From Gammaproteobacteria bacterium UBA2810 (GTDB lineage: Bacteria > Pseudomonadota > Gammaproteobacteria > Enterobacterales > Succinivibrionaceae): DNA of 58,431 nucleotides. The notes under the pieces were generated by a model that did no database searches, was not told the DNA's origin, and saw only the letters and a list, made by a program, of their open reading frames with translations. This document shows positions 3,800 to 52,818 of the stretch, piece by piece. The stretch is from the NCBI GenBank assembly GCA_002351705.1, contig DEHC01000009.1, forward strand, positions 1 through 58,431, read 5' to 3'. The position numbers and the translations under genes were made by a program. Position 1 is the stretch's first letter; every line of letters begins with the position of its first letter.

Positions 3800-3880
3800 T
3801 CCCTCCTGCCGCGGGACAGCTTTCCCGCGGCAGCCTTTCCGCCGGCGCCTCACAGCCTCACGTCAGGAATGTCCGGGCAT

Positions 3881-3911: not shown

Positions 3912-3939
3912 TGATCATGCAGAGAGATCCGCCGTGACT

Positions 3940-5535: not shown

Positions 5536-5549
5536 CAGTCAGTCAGGAT

Positions 5550-6137: not shown

Positions 6138-6216
6138 TTTCTATCCCTGTTACATTACACAGCCTTTCCGGGGGATTTCTCCTCCGGGGAGGGCGGCATG
6201 ATGTCCGCCCCTGAGG

Positions 6217-36100: not shown

Positions 36101-38269
36101 GAGGCCCTGCATGCCATGTCAGGCGTTGCGGAGATTGAGCTGCCGTCACTGAAGGACGCAGAGGCGAGGATGCAGTCCTGGCTCGGCAGCACGGGGAAGG
36201 CCCGCGACTGGGCCTACTGGTGCAGGGCGAGGAAGGAGCTCATGGATCTTCACATGGAGCCGGTCCTTAACGCTGTCATCGCGGACGGAGTCCCTCCCCG
36301 CGAGGCAGCAGAGCGGTTCCTCAGGGCCGTCTACCGCAATCTCGCCTCCGGGATGATCGACGCGGCGCCGGAGCTCAGGGAGTTCCGCGGACCGGTATTC
36401 GAGGAGAGCATCCGGAAGTACCGGAGCCTTGCGGAGGAGTTCAGGCTCCTCTCGCAGAAGGAGCTCTTCTGCCGTCTTGCAGCCAGGATCCCACAGAGGC
36501 TCAGCGAGCCGAGCGCCCAGTCCGAGATGGGGAAGCTCAGGCGCTACATTGCCTCAAAGGGCCGCGGCATGACCATCCGCCGCATCTTCGACGAGGTGCC
36601 CAACCTCATCAGCAGGCTCTGCCCCTGCATGCTGATGAGCCCGATTTCCGTGGCGCAGTTCCTGAGCCTTGAGCGGGAGCCCTTCGATCTCGTCATCTTC
36701 GATGAGGCGTCGCAGATGCCGACCTCCGAGGCGGTCGGCACCATTGCCCGCGGCAGGGCGCTTGTCGTGGCGGGGGACCCGAAGCAGATGCCGCCCACCA
36801 GCTTCTTCTCGTCTGACACCACGGACGAGAGCGAGTCTGACTATGACGACATGGAGAGCATCCTCGACGACTGCCGCACGCTCTCGATGGATGCGGCGCC
36901 CCTGCAGTGGCATTACCGCTCGAGGAGCGAGAGCCTCATTGCCTTCTCGAACCTCGAGTACTACGGAGGGAGCCTTTACACTTTCCCCTCGGTGAGGGAC
37001 CGTGTCTCGATGGTGCGCTACGTGCCGGTCGAGGGAACCTACGATTTCGGGCGGACAAGGAGCAACCGGGCCGAGGCTGACGCCATTGCGGACGAGGTCA
37101 TCCGCCGCTGGCGCGATCCGGTCCTCAGGAAGGACTCCATCGGCATCATCGCCTTCAGCAAGGCGCAGCAGAACCTCATTGACGACGTGCTCACGGAGCG
37201 CATCGCGGGCGATCCGGAGCTTGAGGCGATGGCATCGCAGGAGAACGAGGGGCTCTTCGTCAAGAACCTCGAGAACGTGCAGGGCGACGAGCGCGATGTC
37301 ATCCTCTTCTCCGTAGGCTACGGCCCTGACAGCCGGGGAAGGGTGTCGATGAACTTCGGGCCCCTCAACGGGAAGGGCGGCGAGAGGCGCCTCAACGTTG
37401 CGGTGAGCCGCGCGAGAAAGGAGATGGTGGTGTTCGCCATCCTGAGGCCCGAGCAGATAGACCTCACGAGGAGCAGCTCCCGCGGGGTCGAGGGCCTCAG
37501 GAGGTTCCTTGAGTTCGCGCGGAGCGGGCAGATTGCGCTCTCCGGCAGCCAGCTCGGGATTCATGCTGATAACGGCATTGCCGCTGCAGTGGCGGACGAG
37601 ATCCGCCGCATGGGCTACGCTGTGGACACCTCGGTCGGCCGCAGCAATTTCAGGGTGGACATCGCGGTGTCAGATCCGAAGGACCGCGACCGCTATATCC
37701 TCGGCATCCTCTGCGACGGCGAGGGCTACTACCGCACGAAGACCGAGCGCGACAGGGAAATTGTCCAGCCCTCGGTCCTCCGCGGCCTCGGCTGGCGGCT
37801 CATCCGTGTCTGGTCAGTTGACTGGTTCGTAAACAAGGAGAAGGAGCTCTCGCGGATCAGGGAGGCGCTCAGGGAGGCTGAGAGAGCGGGCGGTATGCCT
37901 GAGGAGCCCGCCGGGAAGACTGAGCCACTGCCGGCATCTCAGGAGACAGACCCGTCTCAGGAGGCTCCTGCCGCCGCGTCTCATGAAGGGAGCGGTGACA
38001 CAGGGAGCGCTCCGGCAGCTCCCGACTTCCGCCGCGCGCCGGGGCAGGGCATTGATGATATCCCCTCGGGGCAGATCGATGATGCCATCCTATTTGTCGT
38101 CTCGCAGTCAGTGTCGCTTCCTGAGCAGGATCTCAGGAAGAGCGCGGCGAAGGCTCTCGGGTTCGCGAGGACCGGCGCCCACATCGACCAGGTTCTCTCC
38201 GCCCATATCGGAGGCCTGGTGTGCGGAGGGAGGCTCCGGAGGCAGGACGAGAGCATCACCATGCCGTAG
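33110..38269 (+). CDS. 1719-aa multidomain protein: transglutaminase-like cysteine protease domain + DUF4011 + Upf1-like superfamily-1 helicase (AAA_11/AAA_12) + DUF559/REase-like PD-(D/E)xK nuclease + DUF3320
   Basis: TGase core VGTCADASILMASVLESVGLHPLIITVPGHMFIGCW (about 33760). DUF4011 hallmark RRRIWERKLLDLTLRNNLLNMR (about 34230). Walker A IMYGPPGTGKSQT (about 35090). Motif II VIFDEASQM (about 36700). GDPKQMPP, HYRSRSESLIAF, LNVAVSRARKEMVVF. Nuclease-like NFRVDIAVSDP...ILCDGEGYY...GWRLIRVWSVDW (37620-37830). Confidence 0.85.
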   Translation: MTNDRLNVKFDYPEILNYALVQSQKTEPASLDISSSEELRDVVFTVSGEGITEVRTPVSMIPAGNTVTFRDIRITPDADRLRKASESASGMISLTIVQHAGSEKPETVFREDYPVRILAFNEWPGCHVHPELIASFVTPNAPELSAIQARAGAILKKLTGDSALDGYQTRDANRVRAQAAAVFDALREQGILYSVPPASFERTGQRIRLAPDVLKEKVGTCADASILMASVLESVGLHPLIITVPGHMFIGCWLVDKYSAQPVTDDASFLRSRSGDGVNELVLVNAVCICSDSDYSFEDAVAGTKKYLSDDAGETVIVDVKRCRLERVLPLPLEGEAQENEGVRHEAVTDGVESHYSIDEDDLSDEKGSDYRRRIWERKLLDLTLRNNLLNMRTGRKVMAFMPGNAGRVEDILQAGRDLSIQPNPESGSDELISEGLKRGSVYSELKAEDLQPELTHLYRESRNSLDENGANTLFIVFGTLRWFETEKSVVAREAPLLLFPVQLIRKSAGTFVLRGRDEDMNVNTTLLEYLRTQFGVTVKGLGELPADESGYDIDRILATIRAQIAGRPRWEVRDRCLLGLFSFSKFVMWNDIHENFSLIAKNPIIDALVARRTLGDGGKEVDIRSIDEHEEPGELCVPIEADSSQLSAVAMADGGRSFIMYGPPGTGKSQTITNIIANALCHDKRVLFVAEKAAALEVVQKRLERIGIGAFCLELHSNKATRSHMLGQLQEALDAGHPAEPAEFEEKSRELFEERQHLQKYIDALHARGSRGLSVHDCIEGYELRAGSPLGIDRACITDSMTKDDITALAGKVSGLESVFSVSGNPADHPLSGLIVKEESLSASQKLSEGLSRISGPLPGAVNALVRYEELLHREGRAAFSDLEEACVSIGTWESAEDEKRKLLATWAPEALDLQPLALKQEWEGAKDSFILFRYFKKKSFIKKTRIYNMSLTAENADGEIDALLSYSRMRRDMPEGAVRAGELSADDRNTLKSLQEALHAMSGVAEIELPSLKDAEARMQSWLGSTGKARDWAYWCRARKELMDLHMEPVLNAVIADGVPPREAAERFLRAVYRNLASGMIDAAPELREFRGPVFEESIRKYRSLAEEFRLLSQKELFCRLAARIPQRLSEPSAQSEMGKLRRYIASKGRGMTIRRIFDEVPNLISRLCPCMLMSPISVAQFLSLEREPFDLVIFDEASQMPTSEAVGTIARGRALVVAGDPKQMPPTSFFSSDTTDESESDYDDMESILDDCRTLSMDAAPLQWHYRSRSESLIAFSNLEYYGGSLYTFPSVRDRVSMVRYVPVEGTYDFGRTRSNRAEADAIADEVIRRWRDPVLRKDSIGIIAFSKAQQNLIDDVLTERIAGDPELEAMASQENEGLFVKNLENVQGDERDVILFSVGYGPDSRGRVSMNFGPLNGKGGERRLNVAVSRARKEMVVFAILRPEQIDLTRSSSRGVEGLRRFLEFARSGQIALSGSQLGIHADNGIAAAVADEIRRMGYAVDTSVGRSNFRVDIAVSDPKDRDRYILGILCDGEGYYRTKTERDREIVQPSVLRGLGWRLIRVWSVDWFVNKEKELSRIREALREAERAGGMPEEPAGKTEPLPASQETDPSQEAPAAASHEGSGDTGSAPAAPDFRRAPGQGIDDIPSGQIDDAILFVVSQSVSLPEQDLRKSAAKALGFARTGAHIDQVLSAHIGGLVCGGRLRRQDESITMP

Positions 38270-38854: not shown

Positions 38855-39919
38855 ATGGGATTCTTTTCATCATTCATCAAGCCGCAGCTGCCCGACGTAG
38901 TCGAATGGGATCAGATTGATCCGAAGCTGATTTTCTGGAGATGGCCTCATCAGGAAATCAAGAAGGGATCAAAGCTCATCATCCGTCCGGGACAGGACGC
39001 AGTGTTCCTTTTCAACGGCCAGATCGAGGGCGTGTTCACCAAGGACGGCAAGTACGATATTGACTCCGAGATTATCCCGTTCCTCTCGACCCTGAAGGGC
39101 TTCATGTACGGCTTTGACTCCGCGATGAGAGCCGAGGTCCTCTTTGTCAACACCAAGCAGCAGAGCGAGAGATGGGGCACCCAGACCCCTATAATGCTCT
39201 CCTGCCCGGGGCTCCCCGGCGGCCTTCCGGTAAGGGCGTTCGGCAACTTCGTGGTCAGGCCCGGCGACTATCCGCTCCTCATCGAGAACATCGCGGGAGT
39301 CTCGGAGCAGTTCTCCGTGGAGGATGTGAGGGAGCGTATGCGCATGAGCCTTGCACCGCTCCTCATCGAGGCTGTGTCAAAGAGCGGCCAGAACGTGCTT
39401 GATCTGCAGGGCCATGTCTCCGAGCTCGGCGCGATGGTCGGCAAGGCCATGAACGAGCAGATGATGAAGATCGGCCTCAATATCGTCGAGTTCAATATCG
39501 CCAGCTTCTCCTATCCTGATGAGGTCAGGAGGATGCAGGAGAAGGCCGCAGGGCAGGCCATGGTCGGCGATCTCGGCAGGTACCAGGGCATCGCCGTCGC
39601 TGACGGCTTCTCGAATCCCGGTTCCCCTGCCGGCATGACGGCTGCCGCCATGATGGGCATGAACATGGGCGCCGGGATGGGCATGGGCTTCGGCGGTATG
39701 TACGGCGGCGCTGCAGGGGCTGCCGGCGCGGCCGGTGCCTCGCAGCGGCAGAACGCTGCCCCCGGGACCGGAGTGCAGCCTGCGGGGGCTGCCGGCGCCC
39801 AGGGCGGCGCGCAGTCCTCCGGGCCCCAGGGCGGCAGCGGCCCCAATTTCTGTCCGAACTGCGGCGCGAAGGTGAGCGGCTCCAAATTCTGCCCCAACTG
39901 CGGAGCGAAGCTCGTCTGA
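38855..39919 (+). CDS. SPFH/Band-7 (Band_7_1-like) domain protein with Gly/Ala/Met-rich linker and C-terminal double zinc ribbon
   Basis: GFFSSFIKPQLPDVVEWDQ...LIIRPGQDAVFLFNGQIEGVF N-terminus typical of the SPFH Band_7_1 family. C-terminal FCPNCGAKVSGSKFCPNCGAKLV. GGAG SD. Confidence 0.7.
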   Translation: MGFFSSFIKPQLPDVVEWDQIDPKLIFWRWPHQEIKKGSKLIIRPGQDAVFLFNGQIEGVFTKDGKYDIDSEIIPFLSTLKGFMYGFDSAMRAEVLFVNTKQQSERWGTQTPIMLSCPGLPGGLPVRAFGNFVVRPGDYPLLIENIAGVSEQFSVEDVRERMRMSLAPLLIEAVSKSGQNVLDLQGHVSELGAMVGKAMNEQMMKIGLNIVEFNIASFSYPDEVRRMQEKAAGQAMVGDLGRYQGIAVADGFSNPGSPAGMTAAAMMGMNMGAGMGMGFGGMYGGAAGAAGAAGASQRQNAAPGTGVQPAGAAGAQGGAQSSGPQGGSGPNFCPNCGAKVSGSKFCPNCGAKLV

Positions 39920-40011: not shown

Positions 40012-41022
40012 CTAGAACAGCGCGTTGATGAATCCCATGATGAAGCCGAGCCCCGCGCCGAACCAGACCACGGCACTGAGCTCCTTCTTCATGACTCCGA
40101 GGAGGACCTGCTCCGCCTCGTCAATATCCATCTCGTTGATGCGGTTCTCGATGACCCTGCTCAGGTTGAAGGCCTGAAGCATCGCCGGAAGCTTCTCCGT
40201 CACAAGGTGGCGGTACGCCCCGATGAGGCTCTCCGTCACCTTCTGCAGCAGCTCCTCCTTTCCGGCGAGGAGCGCGCTTACCTGCTTCCCCATGAGCTTC
40301 TCTGACTCGCTCTCTGCCATGCCGCCCACGATATCTGCGGCATTCTTCTCCATGATTTCCCGGATATTCTCCGAGAGCAGCTCCCTCAGCGGATCACGGA
40401 GCGATTCGATGATGCTGTCCGTGATCTCGCCGGCCTTTCCGCCGAGAACGCTGTTGATCGCCCTGCCGATGAGGCCGCCGACCGCCTCGGTCAGGCGGCC
40501 GCTGATGGCCTTGAGGAGCTCTCCCTTGTCGCGGAGCTTCACGATGATCTGATCCGCGGCAATGCCGGCGATGCGATCCCCCATTTCGGGATCCCTGAGC
40601 TTCTCCGAGGCAAGAGAGGTGAAGCCGTTGCGGATGCTGCCGGAGGCAGCGGCAATCTCCTCCCCGCTGAAATAGTGACCGAGGAATTCCCCGAGCGTCT
40701 CGTCATTATGGCGCTGCCGGTCGAGGTATTTCTCAATGGCGGAGCGGAGCTTCCCGATCATCTCATCGGAGAGCAGGTTCTTCCCGAGGACCTCACCGCT
40801 GATGAGGTTCTCGCTGACAGCCTTTCCGACCTCCCTGGCAATCCTGCCTCGCTCCTTCGGGATGATGCCCGGCGTGAAAGGGATGTGGAAGCCCTTTATG
40901 TACCACGCCCTGTGCGGCCTGAAGAGCATGCGCACTGCGATGTCGTTCGTGATGTAGCCTATGAGTGCGCCGATTGCGGGGCCGGCGACAAGCCTGTATT
41001 CAGCAAGCAGTTCAATTGTCAT
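40012..41022 (-). CDS. DUF445 family membrane protein
   Basis: IGALIGYITNDIAVRMLFRPHRAWYIKGFHIPFTPGIIPK N-terminal signature and a C-terminal TM segment. True start is the ATG at 41022 with GGAGG SD (the ORF track starts at 41220). Confidence 0.7.
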   Translation of the reverse strand: MTIELLAEYRLVAGPAIGALIGYITNDIAVRMLFRPHRAWYIKGFHIPFTPGIIPKERGRIAREVGKAVSENLISGEVLGKNLLSDEMIGKLRSAIEKYLDRQRHNDETLGEFLGHYFSGEEIAAASGSIRNGFTSLASEKLRDPEMGDRIAGIAADQIIVKLRDKGELLKAISGRLTEAVGGLIGRAINSVLGGKAGEITDSIIESLRDPLRELLSENIREIMEKNAADIVGGMAESESEKLMGKQVSALLAGKEELLQKVTESLIGAYRHLVTEKLPAMLQAFNLSRVIENRINEMDIDEAEQVLLGVMKKELSAVVWFGAGLGFIMGFINALF

Positions 41023-41275
41023 GTTGCGGATCCTCCCGGAGAGGCAGATGCTGATTAGGATGCTCTCCCTTCTCTTCGCATTATAATGTACGGGATATGA
41101 AGTGACACAAAACAACAGATTCAAGGTCAGGAATACGCGCCTCCCGTCACGGCATCCAAAGGTTGCATGCAGGTCCCTGATCCCCGATAATTTCCCTGTC
41201 CGGCATTGCTCTGCCGGCATTTTGTCCCCGGTCTCTCAGTCCGGGGCCGCTTTTTACAGTCCTGGAAGATTCATC

Positions 41276-42484
41276 ATGAAAAGCTTTGAGTGCAGCAGCT
41301 GCGGCGGGTTCATGGAATGGGATCCGGAGAGGCAGTGCCTTTCCTGCCCGAACTGCGGCAGCAGCGTTCCGGTCATGCGCGACGTGCCGCAGCTTCCCGT
41401 TCCGTTTGAATGGGGGACAGTCCCTCCCGAGATAGGGAAGCTCTCGGAGTTCTCTGACAGCCCGGTCATCTGCCCGTCGTGCCACGCCGACATCAGGCCG
41501 AGGGAGGAGACGGTCTCCATGCTCTGCCCGTACTGCGGCACCGCGCTGGTCTTCGACGAGAAGCAGAGCTTTTACCTTACCCCGAACGGGGTCGTCCCCG
41601 AGGCGATCTCGCTCAGGCAGGCAATGAAGTCGGTCGAGAAATGGAGCAGGACTCATTTCTTCGCTCCCACAGTATTCCCGAAGCTCATCGAGAAGAAGTT
41701 CATCAGGAACTGCTATGTCCCGTTCTGGGTGTTCTCCGCCAATATCGCATATTCCTTCGAGGGCGTCGGATCTACGTTCTCAGAGCGGGCTGCCGGGCTC
41801 TCCGGCACCAGTTCCTATCTCGCGAGAAAGCACAGGCGCGAGCAGAAGAGCGAGCACCAGTGCTCGGGACGGAACAGATTCACCGCAAGCGATGTCAGGA
41901 TCTGCGCCTCTTCGAAGCTGAGCAGGGCAGCATCCGATGCCATCTCGGCAGTCTCCTACGGAAAAGTCTGCGACTACCGGCCGGAATACCTCGCGGGGCG
42001 CATTGTGGATCTGGGCAACATCGGCATCGAGACCGGAATGAAGCAGGCTGAGGCGCGGATGAGGGAAATGGCGGAGATCCACGCGAAGGCCATGATAATG
42101 AGCCACGGCTACACCTCGGTCAGGATCACCTCGTTCAGCATCAAGATCTCAGATGCCTCCTACAGCCAGATCCTGATCCCCTGCTACCGGATCATCTACC
42201 GCTACGCCGGAAAGCTCTATTCGGTGGTGGTGAACGGCGAGAACGGCAGGGCAATAGGAGACTATCCGCTCTCGGTCATGAAGGCGGTGATAATCCCGTT
42301 CGTGCTCTGCATGCTCCTCGCCGTGTTCCTCTGCAAGGTACTGGATGTGTCGGTCGGGAGCGCGGGCGCCTTCGGCCTTGTTCTTAGCATAACGTTTTCC
42401 GCAGCGGCCTATGTTCTTTCCTCAATAAGGAAGAAGGCCAACATCAGGGATCACGGCAGGATCTTCTTCAGGACAGATGACTGA
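41276..42484 (+). CDS. Double-zinc-ribbon membrane-anchored protein, divergent member (paralog 1) of the five-gene family in this window
   Basis: MKSFECSSCGGFMEWD...CPNCG / CPSCHADI...CPYCGTALVFDEKQSFYLTPNGVVP, then VPFWVF, PEYLAG, IIYRYAGKLYSVVVNGENGRAIGDYP, C-terminal TM helices. Collinear with the ORFs at 47280-52530. Confidence 0.7.
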   Translation: MKSFECSSCGGFMEWDPERQCLSCPNCGSSVPVMRDVPQLPVPFEWGTVPPEIGKLSEFSDSPVICPSCHADIRPREETVSMLCPYCGTALVFDEKQSFYLTPNGVVPEAISLRQAMKSVEKWSRTHFFAPTVFPKLIEKKFIRNCYVPFWVFSANIAYSFEGVGSTFSERAAGLSGTSSYLARKHRREQKSEHQCSGRNRFTASDVRICASSKLSRAASDAISAVSYGKVCDYRPEYLAGRIVDLGNIGIETGMKQAEARMREMAEIHAKAMIMSHGYTSVRITSFSIKISDASYSQILIPCYRIIYRYAGKLYSVVVNGENGRAIGDYPLSVMKAVIIPFVLCMLLAVFLCKVLDVSVGSAGAFGLVLSITFSAAAYVLSSIRKKANIRDHGRIFFRTDD

Positions 42485-42579
42485 GTACACCCGTGTTGAT
42501 GTGGTGGGCCTGCGCTCTGCCTCAGGCAGAATCCGCTGAATGAGTGTCCGCAGCGGCGGACGATTCTGCGTTATCCGTA

Positions 42580-42610
42580 AAATTGTCCATTAGCAGTGGA
42601 CAATTTTTCA
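42580..42610. terminator. Bidirectional terminator (8-bp inverted repeat attgtcca/tggacaat flanked by an A-run and a T-run)
   Basis: aaaattgtcca-ttagcag-tggacaattttt, between convergent genes. Confidence 0.5.
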
Positions 42611-42746
42611 TGATTTTCGCTGACTTTCTGAATGGTGCTTTTAATACAGTGTGCTGTTTTTGCAAATGATTTTAATCAAAACAGCCTTCTGAAACTACGA
42701 AAGTCCATGAAAAAAACTAACATGGATTTTGCAGCTCCAGGTGTTT

Positions 42747-43115
42747 TTACTGCTTGTTTTCAGGGAGCAGTGCAGCCTGCCATTCTGCCTCCTTGAACCC
42801 GACCAGCACAGTACTGTCTGTAACGAAGATAGGCCTCTTCACGAGCATTCCGTCCGTTGAGAGAATTGAGAGCATCTCGTCAGGAGTCATGGTGCCTACC
42901 TTTTTCGAGAGGCCCATTTCACGGTAGAGCTTTCCGCTCGTGTTGAAGAACTTCCTCAGATCCTTGCCGCTGAGGCTGCTCCAGGCTTTGAGCTCATCTG
43001 CGCTCGGTTTCTGATCGGCAATAGGCCTGACCTGGTATTCAACATGGTGATCATCAAGCCATTTGATGGCCTTCTTGCAGGTCGTGCATCTGCTGTAGCA
43101 GAGACATGTGTTCAT
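42747..43115 (-). CDS. ArsC/Spx/YffB-family thioredoxin-fold protein
   Basis: MNTCLCYSRCTTCKKAIKWLDDHHVEYQVRPI CxxC N-terminus. 122 aa. True start is the ATG at 43115 with AGGAGA SD. Confidence 0.7.
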   Translation of the reverse strand: MNTCLCYSRCTTCKKAIKWLDDHHVEYQVRPIADQKPSADELKAWSSLSGKDLRKFFNTSGKLYREMGLSKKVGTMTPDEMLSILSTDGMLVKRPIFVTDSTVLVGFKEAEWQAALLPENKQ

Positions 43116-43443
43116 TATTCTCTCCTTTGCCCGGAGATGTCCGGGCAGACTGTTCATGCGGCATACGTACCGATTATATCCGTCTCCTGCATGTCCTGAC
43201 TGAGGAGAGCCATGCAGAAACAATGCCTTAAATACCGGACCGGGGGACTGTCTGCACGAGTCTCTGAATAGTAAACACACTCCATCCGGACATGCCTGCG
43301 GCAGAACGCCTGATGTAATGATCCTGATCGTGGTGATCCGGCGCCTGTTATTCTGAAAGCAGAGCGCAAGCCGACGGATAAAGAAGCGCCGCGCTTATTT
43401 ACAGAGCGGCGCTTCGTCCGTTTTTTGCTGCCTCGTTGATCGT

Positions 43444-44385
43444 TCAGATATTGAATGCACCGAACAATTCCTGACGGTATGCTTTGTCAGTAATGATTCT
43501 GGAAATATCATCATTCCTGTTCTGTGAGGTCAGGATCTGTATGAGTTTAGCGAAACGCTCCTCACCGCGATCCTCGCCGATTTTTATCCCGCGTTCCATG
43601 CCGCGCTCTTCTCCGCGATCCTCAGCATCCTTTATATCTGAGCGGTAATCCATACGGGCTATCTCGTTATTAATGTAGTTCATGCGCTCCTCCCTGCTGC
43701 TGAAAAATTCATCGCATGCGTCATATGCCTTGCTTATTACATCATCGCACATTGCGAGCTCCTGTTTCCGTTTCTTCCGGCGGAAAGCGAAAAAACCCAT
43801 CCAGCGCTCAATCCTCGTCATTTCGCTGGCAGGCTTGTTTCTCGCTGCCTTCAGGAATTTCCGGAGCTCAAGAAAGTGGAATCTGAGATTTTTGCCGAAA
43901 CTCTCGTAAGGATCGTCGTCCCATCTGATACTGCAGGACGAATGCACGATTGCTTTCTTGCGAATGCTGAAAGCGAGGATGTTGATCGTGATGGCAGGGC
44001 TAGCTTCCAGATAGTCCTCTCCGGCATGCAGGCCTGTGGAATACATATATGTCCAGTAGGCAAGCGTGCGCTTATCCATGTTGTGCCGGCTGGCAACCTG
44101 CGCCTCGACATCAATGAGCTCTCCGGTATCGAGCCTGCACGCGACATCAAAGCGCGGTGCCTTGTCCGCCTTGTTATAGGGGATCTGCTCCGTCGGCCTG
44201 AACTCGATGTCGTTGATCCTGTGCCCGAGCGACTCGCTGAGCACTGAGTTCAGGAAATCTACTGTGAAGTGCTTGCGCTCCTCCTTTCCGAATACAAACT
44301 TGAACAGCAGGTCGTCCATCGTATTGATGTGCTGGTTCTCGATCTTTGTCTGAATTATGCTTCTGATTTTCTTTTCGTCCTGCAT
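43444..44385 (-). CDS. Rpn/YhgA-family PD-(D/E)xK recombination-promoting nuclease / putative transposase
   Basis: DDLLFKFVFG...FLNSVL...IEFRPTEQ...DVACRLDTGELIDVEAQ nuclease core. C-terminal DAEDRGEERGMERGIKIGEDRGEERFAKLIQ repeats typical of the family. AT-rich gene. Confidence 0.6.
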   Translation of the reverse strand: MQDEKKIRSIIQTKIENQHINTMDDLLFKFVFGKEERKHFTVDFLNSVLSESLGHRINDIEFRPTEQIPYNKADKAPRFDVACRLDTGELIDVEAQVASRHNMDKRTLAYWTYMYSTGLHAGEDYLEASPAITINILAFSIRKKAIVHSSCSIRWDDDPYESFGKNLRFHFLELRKFLKAARNKPASEMTRIERWMGFFAFRRKKRKQELAMCDDVISKAYDACDEFFSSREERMNYINNEIARMDYRSDIKDAEDRGEERGMERGIKIGEDRGEERFAKLIQILTSQNRNDDISRIITDKAYRQELFGAFNI

Positions 44386-44777
44386 GATCTGCCCTGCCTT
44401 CCGTATCTTTATTTCTGCAGTCTCTCTTGTTTAATCCGCACGCGCTCTTTAAGCCTGAGCCGCCCGTGCTTTTCTTCTCTGCAGACAATGATATCCGGCA
44501 GCTGGCAGCCAGGCAAATTTTATTGGCTGCTTATCAGTCATAACAGATCATGCAAATGATATTTTTATCAGAATCCGGCCATAAGCCGGGCTGAGGCCAG
44601 ATCCCCGGGGCTTGGCATTAACAGGCCTCAAAAGCCCTTACAATTGATGCCGGAATTCTGTATCATAGCGTGCATAGGCGGGGCGCTCGCCCGGCCGCAA
44701 CCCAATCAAAGCGCCTGATGGCATTCATTTCAATTCACTAAGTCCCGGATCCGGGCAAGCCATCCTCCCGTGCCGCT

Positions 44778-45953
44778 TTGGTTCCCCAAGGATTCCCTGT
44801 GAGCCAGCAGATTTTCCAGTACCTCAGGAAGCGTCCTGCTTTCCGTACTGCCATGTTCTTTGTCACTGTTCTCTGCATTGCAGTAGTTCTCATCATGCTC
44901 GGCCGCCGTGCCGATGCGGTCACCGAGGCGAGGCGCTTCAAGGGAGGCGTCCTGACAGCAGATGAGGTCGCCTGCGCCTTTGAGGGCGTGGGCGGAAAGC
45001 TCATCTCGAAGAAGGTTTCCGAGGGGGACAGGGTGAAGAAAGGGCAGCTTCTGATGGTCATCGATGACCGCGACCTTCAGAATACGGTTGCTGACCTCAG
45101 GGCGTCAGCCGCGCAGCTTGACGCAGAGATTAAGAAGCAGGAGCTCGATCTCAAAAATGCCCGGGACAAAGTGCGCACCACTGAGATATCACAGTGGCGC
45201 CAGATAGAGTCTCTCGAGTCAAGGCTCCGCGGCAGCAGCGAGGAGCTCTCCCAGGCAAAGGCCGAGTACAGGCGCTACTCATCCCTTGTGGAGGTATCCG
45301 CGGCCTCAAGGAGCGCCTATGACAAGGCCCGCGCCGTAAGCGCCCAGGCCGAGGCTGCTCACACCGCTGCATTCAAGAGCCTCCAGGAGCTGACTGTCGG
45401 CGCCTCTCCCCGCCAGATGAAAAGGCTCCACGACACCGGAAGCGCCGATGGCATGACGCTGAGCGCCATCACCCAGATGCGCACTGACTGCGACAGCATG
45501 GAGCAGGCCCTTCATGCGCTCGAGGCCTCTCGGAATGCCGTGCAGGCAAGGCTAGAGCAGCAGCTCCTCAATCTCTCAAGGACGAAGCTCTACGCGCCAT
45601 GCGACGGAACAGTGCTTGACACCTACTTCGAGGAGGGCGAGATCATCCCCGCGTCAGCCGCTGCGCTCAACCTCGAGACCGACCGCCGCTACTATGACGT
45701 CTACCTTTCGGAGCGCACAGTCGCCCGCTACAGGAAGGGCAGCGCAGTGACCGGCATGGCCCCGGCGCTCGGTCGTGAGGTGAAGGGCATCGCGCGCTCT
45801 GTAAACGCGGCGCCTGCATTCGCTGACCTCCGCATGACGCGCGAGCAGGGGCAGGCTGATCTCACCTCATTCAGGCTCCGTGTTGACGTCACTGACGCGC
45901 CTGAGGAGCTCAGGACCGGCATGACCGTGGAGATCGCAGATGAAAGCGATTAA
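44778..45953 (+). CDS. HlyD-family membrane fusion (periplasmic adaptor) protein
   Basis: Single N-terminal TM. Biotinyl-lipoyl-like VSEGDRVKKGQLLMVIDDRDL. Long coiled-coil, then a beta-barrel tail. Start uncertain (TTG 44778 or ATG 44853). Confidence 0.7.
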   Translation: MVPQGFPVSQQIFQYLRKRPAFRTAMFFVTVLCIAVVLIMLGRRADAVTEARRFKGGVLTADEVACAFEGVGGKLISKKVSEGDRVKKGQLLMVIDDRDLQNTVADLRASAAQLDAEIKKQELDLKNARDKVRTTEISQWRQIESLESRLRGSSEELSQAKAEYRRYSSLVEVSAASRSAYDKARAVSAQAEAAHTAAFKSLQELTVGASPRQMKRLHDTGSADGMTLSAITQMRTDCDSMEQALHALEASRNAVQARLEQQLLNLSRTKLYAPCDGTVLDTYFEEGEIIPASAAALNLETDRRYYDVYLSERTVARYRKGSAVTGMAPALGREVKGIARSVNAAPAFADLRMTREQGQADLTSFRLRVDVTDAPEELRTGMTVEIADESD

Positions 45954-47148
45954 CCGGATGATCCACGCGGCGCTCGAGGAAATCGACGCCATGCGCTCGG
46001 GGCGCTTCATGCCCTATCACAGGCTCTCACTGATGATCGCGCTCATCACCTGCCTCGTCTTCTCCGTCGCGCTCTCGCACCAGGTGGTGTTCAAGGGGCG
46101 CGTCGCGGTGGTCGATCTCGACAGCTCCTCCTGGTCGCAGCACTTCATCGAGCTCCTGAACACCTCGTCATATATCCAGGTGACGGACATATTCAGGAAC
46201 CCCGTCGATCCGGTCGCTCTCGTGATGGGCGACCGCAACCTCGGCGTGCTCTACATACCGCATGACACCGAGCGCAACATCAGGTCATCGCGCCGCCAGG
46301 TGAACCTCGGCTATTTCGCGGACTACACGAACGAGGCGCAGAACGCGGAGGTCATCGAGACGCTCAACAGCATCTCCTCGGAGACCGGAGCCGGCGAGAG
46401 CGCCCCGCGCGTGATGGCCATGGGCCGCACCGGCGCGGAGAGCGCAGGATCAATACTCTCGCCTGTACGCACGGTGGTGAGGAGGCTAGGCGATCCGGTG
46501 TTCTCGGCAACCAACAACATGGTGATAGCTTTCATCTTCTTCTTCAGCTCGATTTACCTCGGGCTCACCGTCCTCATGATACCGGGAAGACTGCGCGTCA
46601 CCGGTCAGTTCAGACGGGCGGTGCTGCAGGGGCCTTTGTGCATGATGGCAAGGCTCATCCCCTACGCCTTCTTCTACACCACGGCAATCAGCGTGGACAT
46701 CTGCCTCCTTGCGACCTTCGGGCAGCTGCGCTTTGACGGGAATTTCCTCCTCTTTGTCCCGAGCATCTTCATGACCGGGATGTGCATCGGTCTCTTCGGC
46801 TTCACCCTCGCCTGGAAGTGCGCGGAGCCCGGCATGGGCGCTGCGTTCATGATCCTCATCGTTCCGCCCGGGTTCATCACCGGCGGCTCGACTCTCGCCA
46901 CTGGCTTCCTCAACGAGGGCGCCTATGTCGCCTCGAACGCCTTCCCTCTTGTCTGGCAGTACCGGCTGTGGCGTGACTTTGCCTTCCGCGCCGAGAACTT
47001 CATGGGAATACTTTCGGAGTACGGCGGGTTCATCTGCTACGCCTCAGTCCTGGGGCTCCTTGTTCTCCTGCGCTGGAGAAAGTCCTGGCTGGAGATAAGG
47101 ACAAGGAGCAGCCAGCATCCCGTTCCCGGGGAGAGAAAAGTCCCCTGA
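45940..47148 (+). CDS. ABC-2 type transporter permease (YhhJ-like), no ATPase partner in the window
   Basis: N-terminal TM plus a large periplasmic loop, then five further TM helices. 402 aa. Overlaps the HlyD gene by 14 bp. Confidence 0.7.
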   Translation: MKAINRMIHAALEEIDAMRSGRFMPYHRLSLMIALITCLVFSVALSHQVVFKGRVAVVDLDSSSWSQHFIELLNTSSYIQVTDIFRNPVDPVALVMGDRNLGVLYIPHDTERNIRSSRRQVNLGYFADYTNEAQNAEVIETLNSISSETGAGESAPRVMAMGRTGAESAGSILSPVRTVVRRLGDPVFSATNNMVIAFIFFFSSIYLGLTVLMIPGRLRVTGQFRRAVLQGPLCMMARLIPYAFFYTTAISVDICLLATFGQLRFDGNFLLFVPSIFMTGMCIGLFGFTLAWKCAEPGMGAAFMILIVPPGFITGGSTLATGFLNEGAYVASNAFPLVWQYRLWRDFAFRAENFMGILSEYGGFICYASVLGLLVLLRWRKSWLEIRTRSSQHPVPGERKVP

Positions 47149-47279
47149 TCCAGCACCGGAGGGCAGTTTCTGAAGAGCGTCCTGCCGCTGTATAATCAAG
47201 CAGTTATGCGGCAGGGCGCCTGTCCGTATCCGGACAGTTCCGGAGGCGCACGCCGGCCGGGAGTATTCAGGAGAAAACT

Positions 47280-48521
47280 ATGAAACTTTACAGCTGCCAT
47301 GCCTGCGGCGGATCCATGGAGTGGGACGGACAGTCAGGCGGACTGAAGTGCAAGAACTGCGGCACGACGGTAAAGGTCGAGGATACCGAGGCGCTCGGCT
47401 ATCACCCCTACGAGACGCTGCCGGAGTTCATGAGCCTCCAGGACTACCCGGAGAAAGTCATCCAGTGCCCGGGCTGCGGGGCCGAGATCAAGGCTGACGC
47501 CAAGACTGTCTCCATGGGCTGCCCTTACTGCGGGGCAAGCCTCGTCCTTGACGAGAAGCAGCTCTCGTTTGCGAAGCCGGACGGCGTTGCTCCCGTAATG
47601 ATCTCCGGCGACAGGGTGAGGCAGCTTGTGAAGGAGTGGTGCGGCAGGCACATGTTCGCGCCCAATCTCGCGTCCAAGCACCTTGAGGTCAAGTTCGTCT
47701 CCCCGCAGTACATCCCGTTCTGGGTGTTCAGGGCCCATGTAAGGGGAGAGTATTCCGGCCGCGGCGGAAAGGACAGGACTGTCACCAGGAAGAATGATGA
47801 CGGCACAACCGTCACCAGGACCGTCACCGACTGGTATCCTATCCACGGCACCGTAAGCGATGATCTCGAGAACTTCGGCGTGTCGGCCGATGAGAACATC
47901 AATAAGGAATATGCAGACTTTCTTTTTGACTCAACGCCTGATGACGCCTTTGCCGAGTGGAAGCCGGAGTATTTCGCCGGAAGCTACTCCTTCATCCCGA
48001 CCGTTCCCGTGGAGGATGCCGAGGAGCAGGCCAAGGATGACATGAAGAGCGAGCTCGAGAGCCGCACCGAGTCAGACCTCAGGAGAGAGTACGATCATGT
48101 CGAGTTCAGCTCGTTTGATGCTGAGTACAGCGACATGGCCTGGCTCCTCGATCAGATCCCGGGGTATTTCGTAATCTGCCGCTACCACGGCGGGATCTAT
48201 GTTGACGCGGTGAACGGCGTTACCGGTGAGATTCACGGAACCTACCCGGTCTCCTTCCTCAAGGTCGCCATAGCCTTCATCCTCGCGGCCGCCGCCGCGT
48301 TCGCCGCCTTCGCCTTCTTCGTCCCGGAGAGCGTCAGCGTCTGCACCAATGAGAGCTGCCGCTTCAGCTGGGGAGTCTTCGGCACGTCGGCCGCCATCTT
48401 CGGGGTCATAGCGCTCATCGTCTATGTCTGCATCCATCTCTGGCTGAAGGGCAAGATCATCGGCAGGGACGAGCTGCAGAAGGATCCTTGGCTTAAGGAA
48501 ATCATGGAGAAGATCAAATAG
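47280..48521 (+). CDS. Double-zinc-ribbon membrane-anchored protein, tandem paralog 2
   Basis: MKLYSCHACGGSMEWDG...CKNCG; CPGCGAEIKADAKTVSMGCPYCGASL; QYIPFWVF; YSGRGG; KPEYFAGS; QIPGYFVICRYHGGIYVDAVNGVTGEI; 2 TM; tail GRDELQKDPWLKEIMEKIK. Confidence 0.75.
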   Translation: MKLYSCHACGGSMEWDGQSGGLKCKNCGTTVKVEDTEALGYHPYETLPEFMSLQDYPEKVIQCPGCGAEIKADAKTVSMGCPYCGASLVLDEKQLSFAKPDGVAPVMISGDRVRQLVKEWCGRHMFAPNLASKHLEVKFVSPQYIPFWVFRAHVRGEYSGRGGKDRTVTRKNDDGTTVTRTVTDWYPIHGTVSDDLENFGVSADENINKEYADFLFDSTPDDAFAEWKPEYFAGSYSFIPTVPVEDAEEQAKDDMKSELESRTESDLRREYDHVEFSSFDAEYSDMAWLLDQIPGYFVICRYHGGIYVDAVNGVTGEIHGTYPVSFLKVAIAFILAAAAAFAAFAFFVPESVSVCTNESCRFSWGVFGTSAAIFGVIALIVYVCIHLWLKGKIIGRDELQKDPWLKEIMEKIK

Positions 48522-48615
48522 CGCATCACGGAATTATGAACCGGCGCGGCAGATTGATGCTGCGCATGGTTCCGCGTGATGCCGATCCTGCCGTCAGGAC
48601 TCAAGGAGAATTTCT

Positions 48616-49895
48616 GTGAAAGAGTACAGCTGCCATGCCTGCGGCGGGCGCATGGAATGGGACGCAGAGTCCGGCGGTCTCAAGTGCCTGAATTGCGGGA
48701 CAAAAGCCGGAGTCGGGAATGACGAACCGTCGGGCTATCACCCCTACGCGGCGCCCCCGGTGTTCAGGGACATCCGGGACTGGGCCGGCCGGGAGATCCG
48801 GTGCCCTATCTGCGGTGCCGTGATTAAGCCTGACGTCAAGACTGTCTCCATGATCTGCCCGTGCTGCGGCGCCAGCCTGGTGTCCGACGAGAGGCAGCTC
48901 GCGTTCGCGAGGCCCGACGCGGTGGCGCGCCGCACGATACCATCTGACAGGGTGGAAGGCCTTCTAAGGAAGTGGTTAGGAACGTGCCCGTTAGCGCCCG
49001 GTCACATGGCTCAGCGCATAGAGGTCATGTTCGTCTCGCCTCAGTATGTCCCCTTCTGGGTGTTCATGGCCCGTTCCTTCTGTATGTACTCCGGCCGCGG
49101 CGGCTTGATCAAAAGTTGCTGTGACGGGCATGGTTGCAGAACCCACACCGAATGGGAGCCCATTCAGGGCCAGAGGATCGATGATCTCAGGAACTTCGGC
49201 GTGACGGCTGATGCGGTCGTTGATAAGGACTATTCGGATTTTCTCTTCAGATCAACGCCTGACGGCGCCTTTTCGGATGGAAGCCGGAGTATTTCGCCGG
49301 CAGCTGGTCATCCATTCCGACGGTGTCTTTCGCGGATGCCGAGAAGCAGGCGAAGGACTGCATGAAGAAAGAGGTTGAGAACCGCATAAAGTCAGAACAG
49401 AAGTACGACTGCGCGGAGTTCAGCTCCTTTGATGACCGGTTCAGGGACACGGCCTGGCGCCTCGTTCAGATCCCGGGTTATTTCGTAATCTGCCGCTACC
49501 ACGGCCGCATATATGTCGATGTGATGAACGGCGTGACCGGCGAGGTCTACGGTGGCTACCCTTTTTCCAATATCAAGGTCACCATTGCCTTTATCATCGT
49601 GACAGCATTTGTATACGCATTGCTGCTGATCTCCGGGTATATGACGGATGATGTGCTCACTGTCTGCACGGACGGGACCTGCCGGACTGACTGGGACACT
49701 GTCTTGCTCATGGGAGAAATTACCGGCATAACCGCGCTCCTCATATATGCCTGCCTAGGCTTTGTGCTCTGGCTCGGGGCTCGTCGAGAGGGCAGTCTGA
49801 AGAGAAGCCCCTGGCTCAGTGAGATAGTCTGGAAATCAGTCGGCACGCGCCTTCTGCCGGGGAGCACAGGCACTGCCGTACAGGAAGGGAAATGA
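48616..49895 (+). pseudogene. Tandem paralog 3 of the same family, disrupted by a 1-bp deletion near 49275 and with a divergent readthrough C-terminus
   Basis: Two overlapping frames (48616..49365 and 49323..49895) together are collinear with paralog 4. Paralog 3 reads ccttttcggatgg where paralog 4 reads ccttttccggatgg. Confidence 0.6.
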
Positions 49896-50006
49896 CGAGC
49901 CGCATCCTGTTTCCGGCTGTCATGGCGCCGCTCCCGGCAGCCACCGTGTTCCAGACATCCAGTCATGCTGTCCGCAATCAGGGACTTTCAAACCGGAGGA
50001 ACCTTC

Positions 50007-51221
50007 ATGAAGCACTATACCTGTCCTGACTGCGGCGGCTCAATGGAATGGGACGGTGCCGCGGGCGGCCTCAGGTGCGGAAACTGCGGGAAAGCAGTCA
50101 GCGTCCCGTCCGGGCCGCCAGCCGGCTTCCACGGCTATGAGGCTCCCCCGGCATTCCCTGGACTTGAGGATTTTCCGGACAGGGCGGTACGCTGCCCCTG
50201 CTGCGGAGCGGAGACAAGGACTGACAGCTGTACCGTCTCCATGAGCTGTCCGTACTGCGGGACAAGCCTCGTCTTCGACGAGAGGCAGCTCGCGTTCGCA
50301 AGGCCTGACGCGGTGGCGCGCTGCATGGTATCCCCTGAGAGGGTGAAGAGCCTTGTAAGGGAGTGGAGCGGAAAGCAGCGGTTCGCGCCTGATCTCACGT
50401 CAAAGTACATGGAGGTAAAGTTCATCTCGCCGCAGTACATCCCGTTCTGGGTGTTCGAGGCCCGTTCCCGCTGTAAGTACTCAGGCCGCGGCTGCAGGTA
50501 CAGGAAAGGCCCGGGTGCCGGCAGGACCGCCGCCACCTGGCATCCAATCCACGGAGAGAGGAGCGATGATCTCAGGAACTTCGGCGTGCCCGCTGCCGCC
50601 GGCATAAAGAAGGACTATGCGGATTTCCTCTTCAGATCCACGCCTGATGACGCCTTTTCCGGATGGAAGCCGGAGTATTTCGCCGGCAGCTGGTCCTTCG
50701 TCCCGGCTGTGCCTTTCGCTGACGCCGAGATGCAGGCGAAGGATGAAATGAAGGATGAGATCGGGAAGCGCATCCGGTCAGAGCTTAACTGCGATCGCGC
50801 GGAGTTCAGCTCCTTCAATGCCGAGTTCAGCAGCAAGGCCTGGCGCCTTGTTCAGATCCCGGGGTATTTCGTCATCTGCCGCTACAACGGCGGAATATAT
50901 GTCGCTGCGGTGAACGCAGTGACCGGAGAGATCTCAGGCACCTACCCTGTATCCATCCTGAAGGTCAACATGGCCTTCATCATCGTGACAGCAGCACTCT
51001 TCGCGCTCTGCGCGTTCATCGAGCCGGATATGGTCGTTACCTGTACGGAAGGCGGCTGCCGGCCAAGCTGGGGATCAATCGGCTCGCTGGCCGCTTTCCT
51101 TCTGGCCGGCGCGCTCATGTTATATGCCCGTACCTGGTTCTGGCTCCGGGGCAGGGTTCTCGGCAGGGACGACCTGAAGGAGAGCCCGTGGCTCAGGCAG
51201 ATAATGGAGAAAACAAAGTAG
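50007..51221 (+). CDS. Double-zinc-ribbon membrane-anchored protein, tandem paralog 4
   Basis: MKHYTCPDCGGSMEWDG. Same motif set. Tail GRDDLKESPWLRQIMEKTK. The ATG at 50007 follows GGAGGA. Confidence 0.75.
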   Translation: MKHYTCPDCGGSMEWDGAAGGLRCGNCGKAVSVPSGPPAGFHGYEAPPAFPGLEDFPDRAVRCPCCGAETRTDSCTVSMSCPYCGTSLVFDERQLAFARPDAVARCMVSPERVKSLVREWSGKQRFAPDLTSKYMEVKFISPQYIPFWVFEARSRCKYSGRGCRYRKGPGAGRTAATWHPIHGERSDDLRNFGVPAAAGIKKDYADFLFRSTPDDAFSGWKPEYFAGSWSFVPAVPFADAEMQAKDEMKDEIGKRIRSELNCDRAEFSSFNAEFSSKAWRLVQIPGYFVICRYNGGIYVAAVNAVTGEISGTYPVSILKVNMAFIIVTAALFALCAFIEPDMVVTCTEGGCRPSWGSIGSLAAFLLAGALMLYARTWFWLRGRVLGRDDLKESPWLRQIMEKTK

Positions 51222-51297
51222 CAGCCGCCATGCGGCGCGGTATGGGGGAATGGCAGGGGTATTCATTCCACAGATGCCTGATCCTGAGGGGGATTTT

Positions 51298-52530
51298 ATG
51301 AAATTTTACAGCTGCCGTGACTGCGGCGGGACAATGGAATGGGACGGCGCGTCGGACTGCCTCAGGTGCCGCAACTGCGGCACGTCAGTTAGCGTTCAGA
51401 AAGCCGCTCCGTCAGGCTGCCACCGCTATGCGGCGCTCCCTGAATTCAGGCGACTCCGGGATCTTGATGAGAAGTCCGTCAGGTGCCCGGGCTGCGGGGC
51501 TGAGGCAAAGACAGACATGAGGACAGTCTCTCTCGTGTGCCCTTACTGCGGGGCAGGAATCGTCCTTGACAGGAGGCAGCTCTCGTTCGCGAGGCCGGAC
51601 GGCACGGCGCGCATCAGGATCAGGGGAGACAGGGTGAGGCAGCTTGTGAAGGAGTGGTGCGCCCGGCATCCGCTCGCGCCTGATCTCACGTCAAAATACC
51701 TTGAGGTCAAGTTCATCTCGCCTCAGTACATCCCGTTCTGGGTGTTCAGCGCGCGCGTCACGGCGAAGTACTCGGGGCGCGGCGGCAGGAACAGGACGGT
51801 GAGGGAGAGGAACGCACAGGGACAGACTGTCAGCAGGACAGCGGTCGACTGGCATCCGATCGATGGGACGGTGAGCGCCGAGCTTGAGAGCTCCGGCGTG
51901 CCGGGAGACCGTGATATTGACGGCAGCTTTTCGGATTTCCTTTACAGCTCGACTCCGCAGGACTCGTTCCGCGCCTGGCAGCCGGAGTATTTCGCGGGGA
52001 GTTGGTCATGCCTTCCCACGGTCCAGGCAGGTGACGCTGAGGCGGCGGCCCATGACGGAATGATCCCGGAGATAAAGCGGCGCACGGTGACTGAGCTCAG
52101 CAGGAAGTGGAGCCATATCGATTTCAGGACCTTCTCCGTGAGCTTCAGCGATACGGCCTGGCGCCTTGTGCAGATCCCCGCGTACTTCGTCATCTGCCGC
52201 TACCACGGCGGCATCTATGTGGAGGCGGTGAACGGCGTGACAGGCGAAATCCGGGGCACCTGTCCCGCGTCGTTCCTCAGGGTCACCGTCTCTTACGCTA
52301 TTGCGGCAGCAGTGATGCTCTCCGTATTCCTATTCGCTGACTACGGGAGCTGCGGCGGGAGGGGCTGCCTCACGGAATCCGGAAGCATCCTCACTGACGC
52401 GCTCATTGCAGCGGTCATTGCGGCAGGAGTCTGGGTCCTCATTTATATTGCGCTCAGGATGAGGGTCCTCGGCACGGATGATCTGAAGAAGAGCCCCTGG
52501 CTCAGGGGGATTATGGAGAAAACCGGGTAA
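51298..52530 (+). CDS. Double-zinc-ribbon membrane-anchored protein, tandem paralog 5
   Basis: MKFYSCRDCGGTMEWDG. Same motif set. Tail GTDDLKKSPWLRGIMEKTG. The ATG at 51298 follows GAGGGGG. Confidence 0.75.
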   Translation: MKFYSCRDCGGTMEWDGASDCLRCRNCGTSVSVQKAAPSGCHRYAALPEFRRLRDLDEKSVRCPGCGAEAKTDMRTVSLVCPYCGAGIVLDRRQLSFARPDGTARIRIRGDRVRQLVKEWCARHPLAPDLTSKYLEVKFISPQYIPFWVFSARVTAKYSGRGGRNRTVRERNAQGQTVSRTAVDWHPIDGTVSAELESSGVPGDRDIDGSFSDFLYSSTPQDSFRAWQPEYFAGSWSCLPTVQAGDAEAAAHDGMIPEIKRRTVTELSRKWSHIDFRTFSVSFSDTAWRLVQIPAYFVICRYHGGIYVEAVNGVTGEIRGTCPASFLRVTVSYAIAAAVMLSVFLFADYGSCGGRGCLTESGSILTDALIAAVIAAGVWVLIYIALRMRVLGTDDLKKSPWLRGIMEKTG

Positions 52531-52689: not shown

Positions 52690-52758
52690 ATGATGTCAGC
52701 TATTGTTTCCAAGAATGTTCTCCTGCTAGGCCTGGGCTTTATCGCGCCGGGTCTGTAG
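52690..52758 (+). CDS. leuL: leu operon leader peptide (22 aa, MMSAIVSKNVLLLGLGFIAPGL)
   Basis: AAGGTGG SD. Four Leu codons in five positions (CTC CTG CTA GGC CTG). Sits 130 bp upstream of leuA and directly before a terminator hairpin. Not in the ORF track because it is under 60 aa. Confidence 0.6.
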   Translation: MMSAIVSKNVLLLGLGFIAPGL

Positions 52759-52789
52759 TTTTTGCTGCCTTTTGACAAGAGAACAATTG

Positions 52790-52818
52790 AACCCGTGCGA
52801 TGCGCGGGTTTTTTTATT
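52790..52818 (+). terminator. leu attenuator terminator
   Basis: acccgtg-cgat-cgcgggt followed by ttttttta, between the leader peptide and leuA. Confidence 0.6.

Follow-up and report, generated by a model that had tools for sequence, protein, structure and literature searches.

What are the proteins that an uncultured gut bacterium encodes five times over, four of them side by side? The window analysed here is the 58,431-nucleotide (nt) stretch at positions 1-58,431 of contig DEHC01000009.1, assembly GCA_002351705.1, from Gammaproteobacteria bacterium UBA2810 (Succinivibrionaceae). It carries five paralogous open reading frames (ORFs), all on the + strand, that start at 41276, 47280, 48616, 50007 and 51298 and are referred to as copies 1 to 5; copies 2-5 form a tandem array. 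A first-pass annotation of the window had described their products as membrane-anchored proteins with two zinc ribbons, and rightly so: each copy encodes two CxxC...CxxC ribbons, a core of ~230 amino acids (aa) and C-terminal hydrophobic helices. It had also called them unassignable to a known family. That view has to be given up, as the alignments make them clear homologues of YdjG/SamG of Bacillus subtilis, a family that has been studied experimentally and described computationally. The copies probably act as YdjG/SamG-family anchors or adaptors for a SamI-like SPFH scaffold, copy 1 being the cognate one and copies 2-5 a recombining expansion whose novel membrane module possibly diversifies the signal input.

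Family assignment and architecture

Pfam, NCBIfam, PADLOC and PHROGs gave no match to the core and only sub-threshold matches to the zinc ribbons, and a sequence search of the PDB returned nothing but zinc-ribbon noise. A word-indexed homologue search gave 199 matches, in Lachnospiraceae, Oscillospiraceae, Amycolatopsis, Dactylosporangium, Planctomycetota and Acidobacteria, and phmmer over 1.84 billion representatives (50% identity) gave 4,189 at E <= 1e-3 and 2,034 at E <= 1e-10. The neighbouring SPFH gene led to the pspA-ydjGHI operon of B. subtilis, and the Bacillus ydjG locus was retrieved by searching with a published ydjG primer sequence (PMC8581546). The family profile aligned with Bacillus YdjG, across both zinc ribbons, at an hhalign probability of 100 (E 4e-55, 314 columns). 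BLASTP against YdjG gave E 4e-31 over 342 columns for copy 1 and E 6e-29 for copy 2, and the SPFH protein of the window is 45% identical to YdjI (E 2e-108), with the C-terminal double CPNCG ribbon included. Profile searching thus upheld one half of the earlier statement, in that no Pfam or NCBIfam family covers the core, but not the other, in that hhalign assigns the copies to YdjG/SamG. The word "unassignable" reflected a missing Pfam model, not novelty. The family is known already; what is new is a tandem, strain-variable array with an extra membrane module.

YdjG/SamG consists of two zinc ribbons, a YpeB-related domain and a transmembrane (TM) segment (PMC11237479). In B. subtilis, membrane retention of YdjI/SamI, a soluble SPFH protein, depends on YdjG/SamG together with YdjH, as does that of PspA by way of YdjI; when ydjG or ydjH is deleted, YdjI and PspA no longer form membrane foci. 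There, YdjG interacts with YdjH, YdjH interacts with YdjI and PspA, and ΔydjG cells show shape defects on alkaline shock (PMC8581546). A 2026 preprint renames the genes samGHI (the operon then being pspA-samGHI) and puts forward a SamG-SamH signalling complex that SamI keeps in check (bioRxiv 10.64898/2026.02.06.704340). The window copies share the two ribbons and the homologous ~230-aa core, and likewise end in a predicted membrane anchor; the homology covers the full length, yet at ~25% identity, and a YdjI/SamI homologue is encoded nearby in the window too. The differences are: i) the window copies have two predicted TM helices and YdjG has one; ii) copies 2-5 carry, in addition, a C-x4-C loop and a conserved amphipathic tail; and iii) the window has five paralogues where B. 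subtilis has one, lacks pspA and ydjH (TPM), and belongs to a Gram-negative gammaproteobacterial host.

In all five copies, ribbon 1 reads MKxYxCxxCGG...CxNCG and ribbon 2 reads CPxCGA...CPYCG. The eight ribbon cysteines are invariant or nearly so in an alignment of 30 family members. Among copies 2-5, identity is 53-60% for protein and 61-70% for DNA; copy 1 shares ~30% protein and ~50% DNA identity with them. The motifs first listed as common to all five are indeed shared by copies 2-5, but copy 1 has only degenerate versions (CYVPFWVF, RPEYLAGR, LIPCYRIIYRYAGKLYSVVVNGENG), and the GRDxL...PWL...IMEK tail is missing from it. A Shine-Dalgarno-like site lies upstream of each copy. Copy 2 is kept at 85-97% identity in every array haplotype seen, the exact protein of copy 4 (P0007) was seen on 188 contigs, and the 3' part of copy 5 is conserved across haplotypes.

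Copy 3, which had been listed alongside the others, is broken. It misses one C at 49273/49274 (TTTTCGG versus TTTTCCGG in copy 4), and this deletion splits it into ORFs 48616-49365 and 49323-49895; its start codon is GTG, and its tail is degenerate and extended. The split form (237 + 177 aa) is also called in other assemblies, so the frameshift is not an error of the window. The shared nucleotide runs quoted from the array do exist, the longest exact ones being 24-36 nt: 34 nt in copies 2 and 5 (GACAGGGTGAGGCAGCTTGTGAAGGAGTGGTGCG), 27 nt in copies 2 and 3, and 36 nt in copies 3 and 4. To speak of "long runs of near-identical nucleotides" is an overstatement at the DNA identities given above and at a synonymous divergence (dS) of 0.6-1.1 between the array copies.

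AlphaFold2 (AF2) modelled full-length copy 2 with a predicted local distance difference test (pLDDT) score of 85.7 and a predicted template-modelling (pTM) score of 0.80. The model has the two ribbons, a core of very long paired strands with helices, two TM helices connected via a small beta-hairpin, and a C-terminal helix. Confidence in the modelled core domain is high, and the best solved-structure matches of a core-only model are PepSY/YpeB-like; these are weak and partial (~66 of 232 residues, 8-19% identity) and are followed by cystatin, VirB8 and NTF2-like folds. Foldseek found nothing significant and no close solved structure, the faint PepSY/YpeB signal of the core-only model being the one coherent result, and Pfam PepSY had no match to the copies at E <= 0.1. 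The likeness to PepSY/YpeB/YpmB domains is at the level of the fold only, and PepSY domains are typically extracytoplasmic whereas the core of the copies is predicted to be cytoplasmic; still, the weak signal may be taken to agree, independently, with the published YpeB link. Long-hairpin pore toxins, the best Foldseek matches at E 0.02 and a TM-score of ~0.1, were rejected as meaningless. To our knowledge, the YdjG/SamG core has no Pfam model, no solved structure and no known biochemical activity.

The SPFH gene and its partners across bacteria

The association with an SPFH gene recurs across the family. Among five distant homologues, Band_7_1 is encoded directly upstream in three (Amycolatopsis P0057, P0055 and P0083), P0026 lies between PspA and a downstream Band_7_1 gene, and P0032 has neither. 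A context survey took in 80 unrelated metagenome loci of typical members, whose ORFs were scanned with hidden Markov models (HMMs) and phmmer. A Band_7_1-like gene was present in 58 of them, and in 54 an SPFH gene ended <=400 nt upstream on the same strand; the upstream arrangement was seen in 31 of the 43 loci having at least 1.2 kb on both sides. PspA and YdjH (TPM) occurred within 6 kb in none of the 80, so this feature of the operon is Firmicutes-specific and not family-defining. The conservation of SPFH, and not of PspA or YdjH, across phyla speaks for SPFH and SamG together as the core module.

Across bacteria, then, the core module is an SPFH gene with a SamG-like gene, and the multi-copy state is rare. 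On the question whether homologues elsewhere are also arrayed, the loci surveyed were mostly single-copy beside an SPFH gene, and arrays were seen only in relatives of the window, except for one of the 80 loci (L029) that has two tandem copies, 33% identical. L029 is an unrelated contig, on which the SPFH gene and then the two SamG-like genes occupy positions 1630-5029. Copy 1 resembles the Band_7_1 SPFH + SamG-like pair of Actinobacteria, Firmicutes and environmental metagenomes in that it is likewise close to a Band_7_1 gene, one gene away; the window pair differs in being interrupted by that gene, a DUF445 gene on the opposite (−) strand, and in having four further paralogues 7-12 kb off that lack an SPFH gene of their own.

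The SPFH gene at 38855-39919 encodes a SamI homologue whose cognate anchor is likely to be copy 1, and this SPFH protein is presumed to be the cytosolic partner of the SamG-like copies. The copies themselves would face the cytoplasm with their two zinc ribbons and PepSY/YpeB-like core, and be held at the membrane by the C-terminal anchor.

A different partner is suggested by the position of the array, which does stand directly after an HlyD/ABC-2 pair (44778..47148, +), as had been pointed out. The array proteins might be accessory or regulatory subunits of an HlyD/ABC-2 exporter and not SPFH partners. The order HlyD, ABC-2, copy 2 is also found in L010, L020, L021 and L022 and is kept in all related contigs, even those only 86% identical. 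No terminator-like site was found between the ABC-2 gene and copy 2, nor between the array copies, and strong terminator-like hairpins lie after copy 1 (42579-42607) and before leuA (52789-52811). HlyD/ABC-2 may be co-transcribed with the array. The exporter role is highly improbable, however. HlyD, ABC-2 and DUF445 are not recurrent neighbours in the 80 metagenome loci, none of which has HlyD/ABC-2 next to the family (the single HlyD match is on the opposite strand). The synteny is confined to close relatives and could be inheritance alone. Copy 2 is intact in L021, but the ABC-2 permease there is broken into two ORFs of 104 and 282 aa (positions 5030-6238), which suggests that the permease is dispensable. 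A functional link of the pair to the array was thus judged unlikely on its absence from the unrelated loci, and whether the two make up one system is uncertain, the linkage being seen only in the lineage of the window. The HlyD/ABC-2 pair has no adjacent ATPase gene.

Variation of the array and its membrane module

Copies 1-5 have two hydrophobic C-terminal segments each by hydropathy scan, and most family members have one. Common to copies 2-5 are the C-x4-C in the short inter-helix loop and the conserved amphipathic tail. When copy 2 was searched against the 1.84 billion representatives, only P0011, P0174 and P0190 (49-61% identical) reached residue 411-413; the other full-length matches end near residue 330-357, one at 377. 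Judging from these alignments, the C-terminal module of copies 2-5 (hairpin with C-x4-C loop, and tail) appears to be lineage-restricted. Its predicted topology is N-in, loop-out (periplasm) and tail-in (cytoplasm), because of the zinc ribbons and the lack of a signal peptide at the N-terminus and the basic residues past TM2.

Region by region, the mean pairwise amino-acid identity among nine paralogue types of the array clade is 53% for the zinc ribbons, 56% for the core, 31% for the membrane hairpin and 47% for the tail. The membrane region is therefore the most divergent part, which bears out the earlier remark that the TM regions differ. The cysteine pair of the C-x4-C loop is retained in 8 of the 9 types. 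Between the array copies of the window, the ratio of nonsynonymous to synonymous substitution rates (dN/dS) is 0.32-0.51 overall, 0.2-0.56 in the core and 0.36-1.0 in the hairpin; in the tail it is 0.07-0.23 between intact copies. With the dS given above, these ratios mark copies 2-5 as duplicates of long standing that evolve under purifying selection, with the least constraint in the membrane segment.

Array copy number ranges from 2 to 4 across haplotypes. L001-L004 have the same haplotype as the window (copy 2, the copy 3 pseudogene, copy 4, copy 5). In L021, a conspecific locus whose flanks are 96.7% and 99.6% identical, copy 2 is followed by one gene, a chimera that takes the place of the stretch from the end of copy 2 to the middle of copy 5. 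The 5' ~830 nt of the chimera are 60-74% identical to any window copy and are frameshifted after MEW (GGG to GG); the final ~330 nt are 100% copy 5, and the junction lies in the conserved QIPGYFVICRYHGGIYV block. L020 (98.5% identical over 9.8 kb) has copy 2 and then the 5' part of a second gene, where the contig ends. The first ~200 nt of this gene are 98-100% identical to the L021 chimera and the following part 40-90%, so it is of a related but not identical type. L104, a 4.6-kb contig with flanks that are not comparable, carries copy 2 (95%), a frameshifted gene of type X, a gene of type Y (440 aa, without the Cys pair) and a copy 5-like gene (86%). L022 and L023, about 86% identical, have a copy 2-like gene, a frameshifted middle copy and a copy 5-like gene. 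Type X has the same 1-nt deletion (GGG to GG after MEW) in L104 (about 960-1000) and in L021 (about 7773-7830), and its inactivation is therefore older than the L021 fusion. At the ends of the array, then, copies 2 and 5 persist from strain to strain; the genes between them are exchanged, fused or inactivated. Programmed frameshifting or phase variation was rejected, as the sites (CC to C, GGG to GG) are not long homopolymer tracts.

Among the parsimony-informative sites of copies 2-5, all three quartet topologies are supported, and the sites cluster by topology (64 adjacent-same pairs versus 43.6 ± 5.0 expected, p about 1e-4). One tract shared by copies 2 and 5 is significant at p = 0.0008, uncorrected for six pairs. 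These clustered sites and this tract, together with the L021 chimera and the middle genes of L104, support the proposal of the first-pass annotation that this is a recombining, diversifying paralogue family. In a neighbour-joining (NJ) tree without support values, copy 1 is sister to the whole array clade, a placement consistent with origin of the array by duplication within the lineage of the window.

Turnover of this kind need not be adaptive. The copies could be redundant duplicates in neutral birth and death under relaxed constraint, with only copy 2 and/or copy 5 functioning as anchors. This would fit the copy number of 2 to 4 and the presence of a frameshifted copy in each haplotype looked at (copy 3 in the window, type X in L104 and L021, the middle one in L022/L023), as well as the moderate constraint (dN/dS 0.3-0.5; hairpin 0.36 to 1.0). 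It is rather unlikely, given that the intact copies 2, 4 and 5 are still open despite a dS of 0.6-1.1, that the tail is strongly conserved and the C-x4-C kept in 8/9 types, that ribosome-binding sites are retained, and that different haplotypes hold distinct intact middle types (copy 4 in the window, type Y in L104).

Variation at the strain level also brings to mind defence. The array could consist of defence or immunity cassettes (phage exclusion, abortive infection or toxin immunity), the variable hairpin and periplasmic loop recognising invaders and the SamG-like module signalling or acting as effector. Cassette turnover and inter-copy recombination would be in keeping with this, as would the location of the most variable part in the membrane- or periplasm-exposed segment, an Hhe/PDC-S37-type helicase-nuclease ~9 kb upstream (PADLOC E = 0), and the PD-(D/E)XK gene and low-GC patch between copy 1 and the array. 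Several results make such a role unlikely: i) PADLOC and PHROGs gave no match for the copies or the SPFH gene (copies 1, 2, 4 and 5 and the SPFH gene were scanned with PADLOC); ii) two viral-contig scans of IMG/VR found no relatives; iii) the family elsewhere is single-copy, SPFH-paired and in ordinary chromosomal contexts; iv) dN/dS is not above 1, the hairpin included; v) the inner copies are often pseudogenes; and vi) the array has normal GC and lies beside leuABCD. Nothing relevant came from a search of the literature for a tie between SPFH proteins and phage defence. On balance, a defence or immunity role of the array is neither supported nor excluded.

If the copies are SamG-type anchors of the SPFH scaffold, as we favour, copies 2-5 would be a lineage-specific expansion in which the SamG cytoplasmic module is kept and a new membrane module added. 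In this module, a TM hairpin would present the small C-x4-C loop on the periplasmic side, with a conserved cytosolic amphipathic helix after it. Copies 2-5 could then serve as alternative anchors or sensors through which different cues from the membrane or envelope reach one and the same SPFH scaffold, and the array would evolve via birth and death with inter-copy recombination. Family membership, architecture, the tie of the family to SPFH genes and the polymorphism of the array are shown by the data; membrane topology, binding of the copies to the SPFH protein and a possible part in sensing are inferences. Several points weigh against this account. Copies 2-5 do not adjoin the SPFH gene but are 7-12 kb away from it. 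PspA_IM30 and TPM domains were found in none of the window genes scanned. The direct two-hybrid contact of B. subtilis YdjI is YdjH, not YdjG (PMC8581546). The tree that ties copy 1 to the array carries no support values. Finally, each array haplotype seen whole has a frameshifted inner copy, which fits redundancy equally well. A more specific version, with the array as strain-variable membrane- or periplasm-facing sensors that feed envelope insults (phage, bacteriocins, host factors) into one SPFH membrane-protection scaffold, is quite unlikely.

Genomic setting and significance

The window is chromosomal, with dnaB, alr, sdhAB, leuS, mutL and miaA upstream and leuABCD directly downstream, and the locus recurs on many gut-type metagenome contigs. 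The copy 1 protein has an exact NCBI match, annotated as a hypothetical protein of an uncultured Succinivibrionaceae metagenome-assembled genome (MAG), and the SPFH protein has a near-identical NCBI entry (same 90% cluster), likewise from an uncultured Succinivibrionaceae MAG. The features are collected in Table 1.

Table 1. Features of the window from the helicase-nuclease gene to leuA, with the parts of copy 2
Feature	Position	Strand	Description or basis
Hhe/PDC-S37-type helicase-nuclease	33110-38269	+	PADLOC, Pfam
SPFH (Band_7_1) protein	38855-39919	+	YdjI/SamI homologue; low-complexity linker, C-terminal double CPNCG zinc ribbon; Pfam Band_7_1 E 4.7e-50
DUF445	40012-41220	−	Library scan; between SPFH gene and copy 1
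Copy 1	41276-42484	+	ORF, 402 aa; divergent SamG/YdjG-like, two zinc ribbons, core, two TM helices; without C-x4-C loop and conserved tail
ArsC/Spx-like	42747-43280	−	
PDDEXK_2 (nuclease or transposase-like)	43444-44385	−	
HlyD-family adaptor	44778-45953	+	Pfam, NCBIfam
ABC-2 permease	45940-47148	+	Pfam, NCBIfam
Copies 2-5 (tandem array)	47280-52530	+	
Copy 2	47280-48521	+	First array gene, 413 aa, intact
Copy 2 zinc ribbons, C6-C27 and C63-C84	47295-47531	+	Family alignment
Copy 2 core, aa 96-327, predicted cytoplasmic	47565-48260	+	Long curved beta-sheet packed with helices
Copy 2 predicted membrane hairpin: TM1 aa 328-348, C-x4-C loop PESVSVCTNESCRFS, TM2 aa 364-388	48261-48443	+	Hydropathy scan
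Copy 2 amphipathic C-terminal tail IGRDELQKDPWLKEIMEKIK	48459-48518	+	Predicted cytoplasmic
Copy 3 (pseudogene)	48616-49895	+	1-nt deletion, GTG start, degenerate extended tail
Copy 4	50007-51221	+	Intact, 404 aa
Copy 5	51298-52530	+	Last array gene, 410 aa, intact
leuA	from 52865	+	

The array had been placed inside a lower-GC region. It has 58.5-61.4% GC, matching the remainder of the window, and the only clear dip near it (51-55%) is limited to about 42-45 kb. This patch (42000-45000) holds the ArsC/Spx-like and PDDEXK_2 genes and may be an inserted segment that separates copy 1 from the array. The palindrome with a perfect 13-bp stem at 42579-42607 (+), AAAATTGTCCATTAGCAGTGGACAATTTT, lies ~95 nt past the stop of copy 1 and is followed by a T-rich stretch; it may act as a terminator or be bound by a protein.

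The helicase-nuclease gene (1719 aa, + strand), which immediately precedes the SPFH gene, encodes DUF4011, AAA_11/AAA_12 helicase and MTES_1575 nuclease domains, with PADLOC matches to PDC-S37 (E = 0) and Hhe (4.6e-150). By these matches its product is a known or candidate single-gene anti-phage defence protein. Further upstream, the ORF at 27412-28344 (+) encodes an N-terminal Zn_Ribbon_1 and a DUF805 membrane domain, a zinc-ribbon membrane protein unrelated to the SamG-like family. On the other side of the array, a short ORF rich in Leu codons at 52690-52758 (+), MMSAIVSKNVLLLGLGFIAPGL, is followed by the terminator-like hairpin at 52789-52811 (10-bp stem and T-run) just 5' of leuA. The region 52690-52811 resembles the leader peptide and attenuator of a leu operon; scanning 38-53 kb, the leu leader region included, with Rfam found no family.

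As a case of cassettes being turned over through recombination among tandem paralogues, the strain-variable array of this uncultured gut bacterium is small and clean. Should the copies turn out to be decaying duplicates, there is nothing out of the ordinary in it. The combination of a constant cytoplasmic module with a variable hairpin in the lineage of the window points to the membrane segment as the part that may read the environment. If copies 2-5 are indeed alternative sensors, the SPFH/Psp field would gain a way to study signal input.

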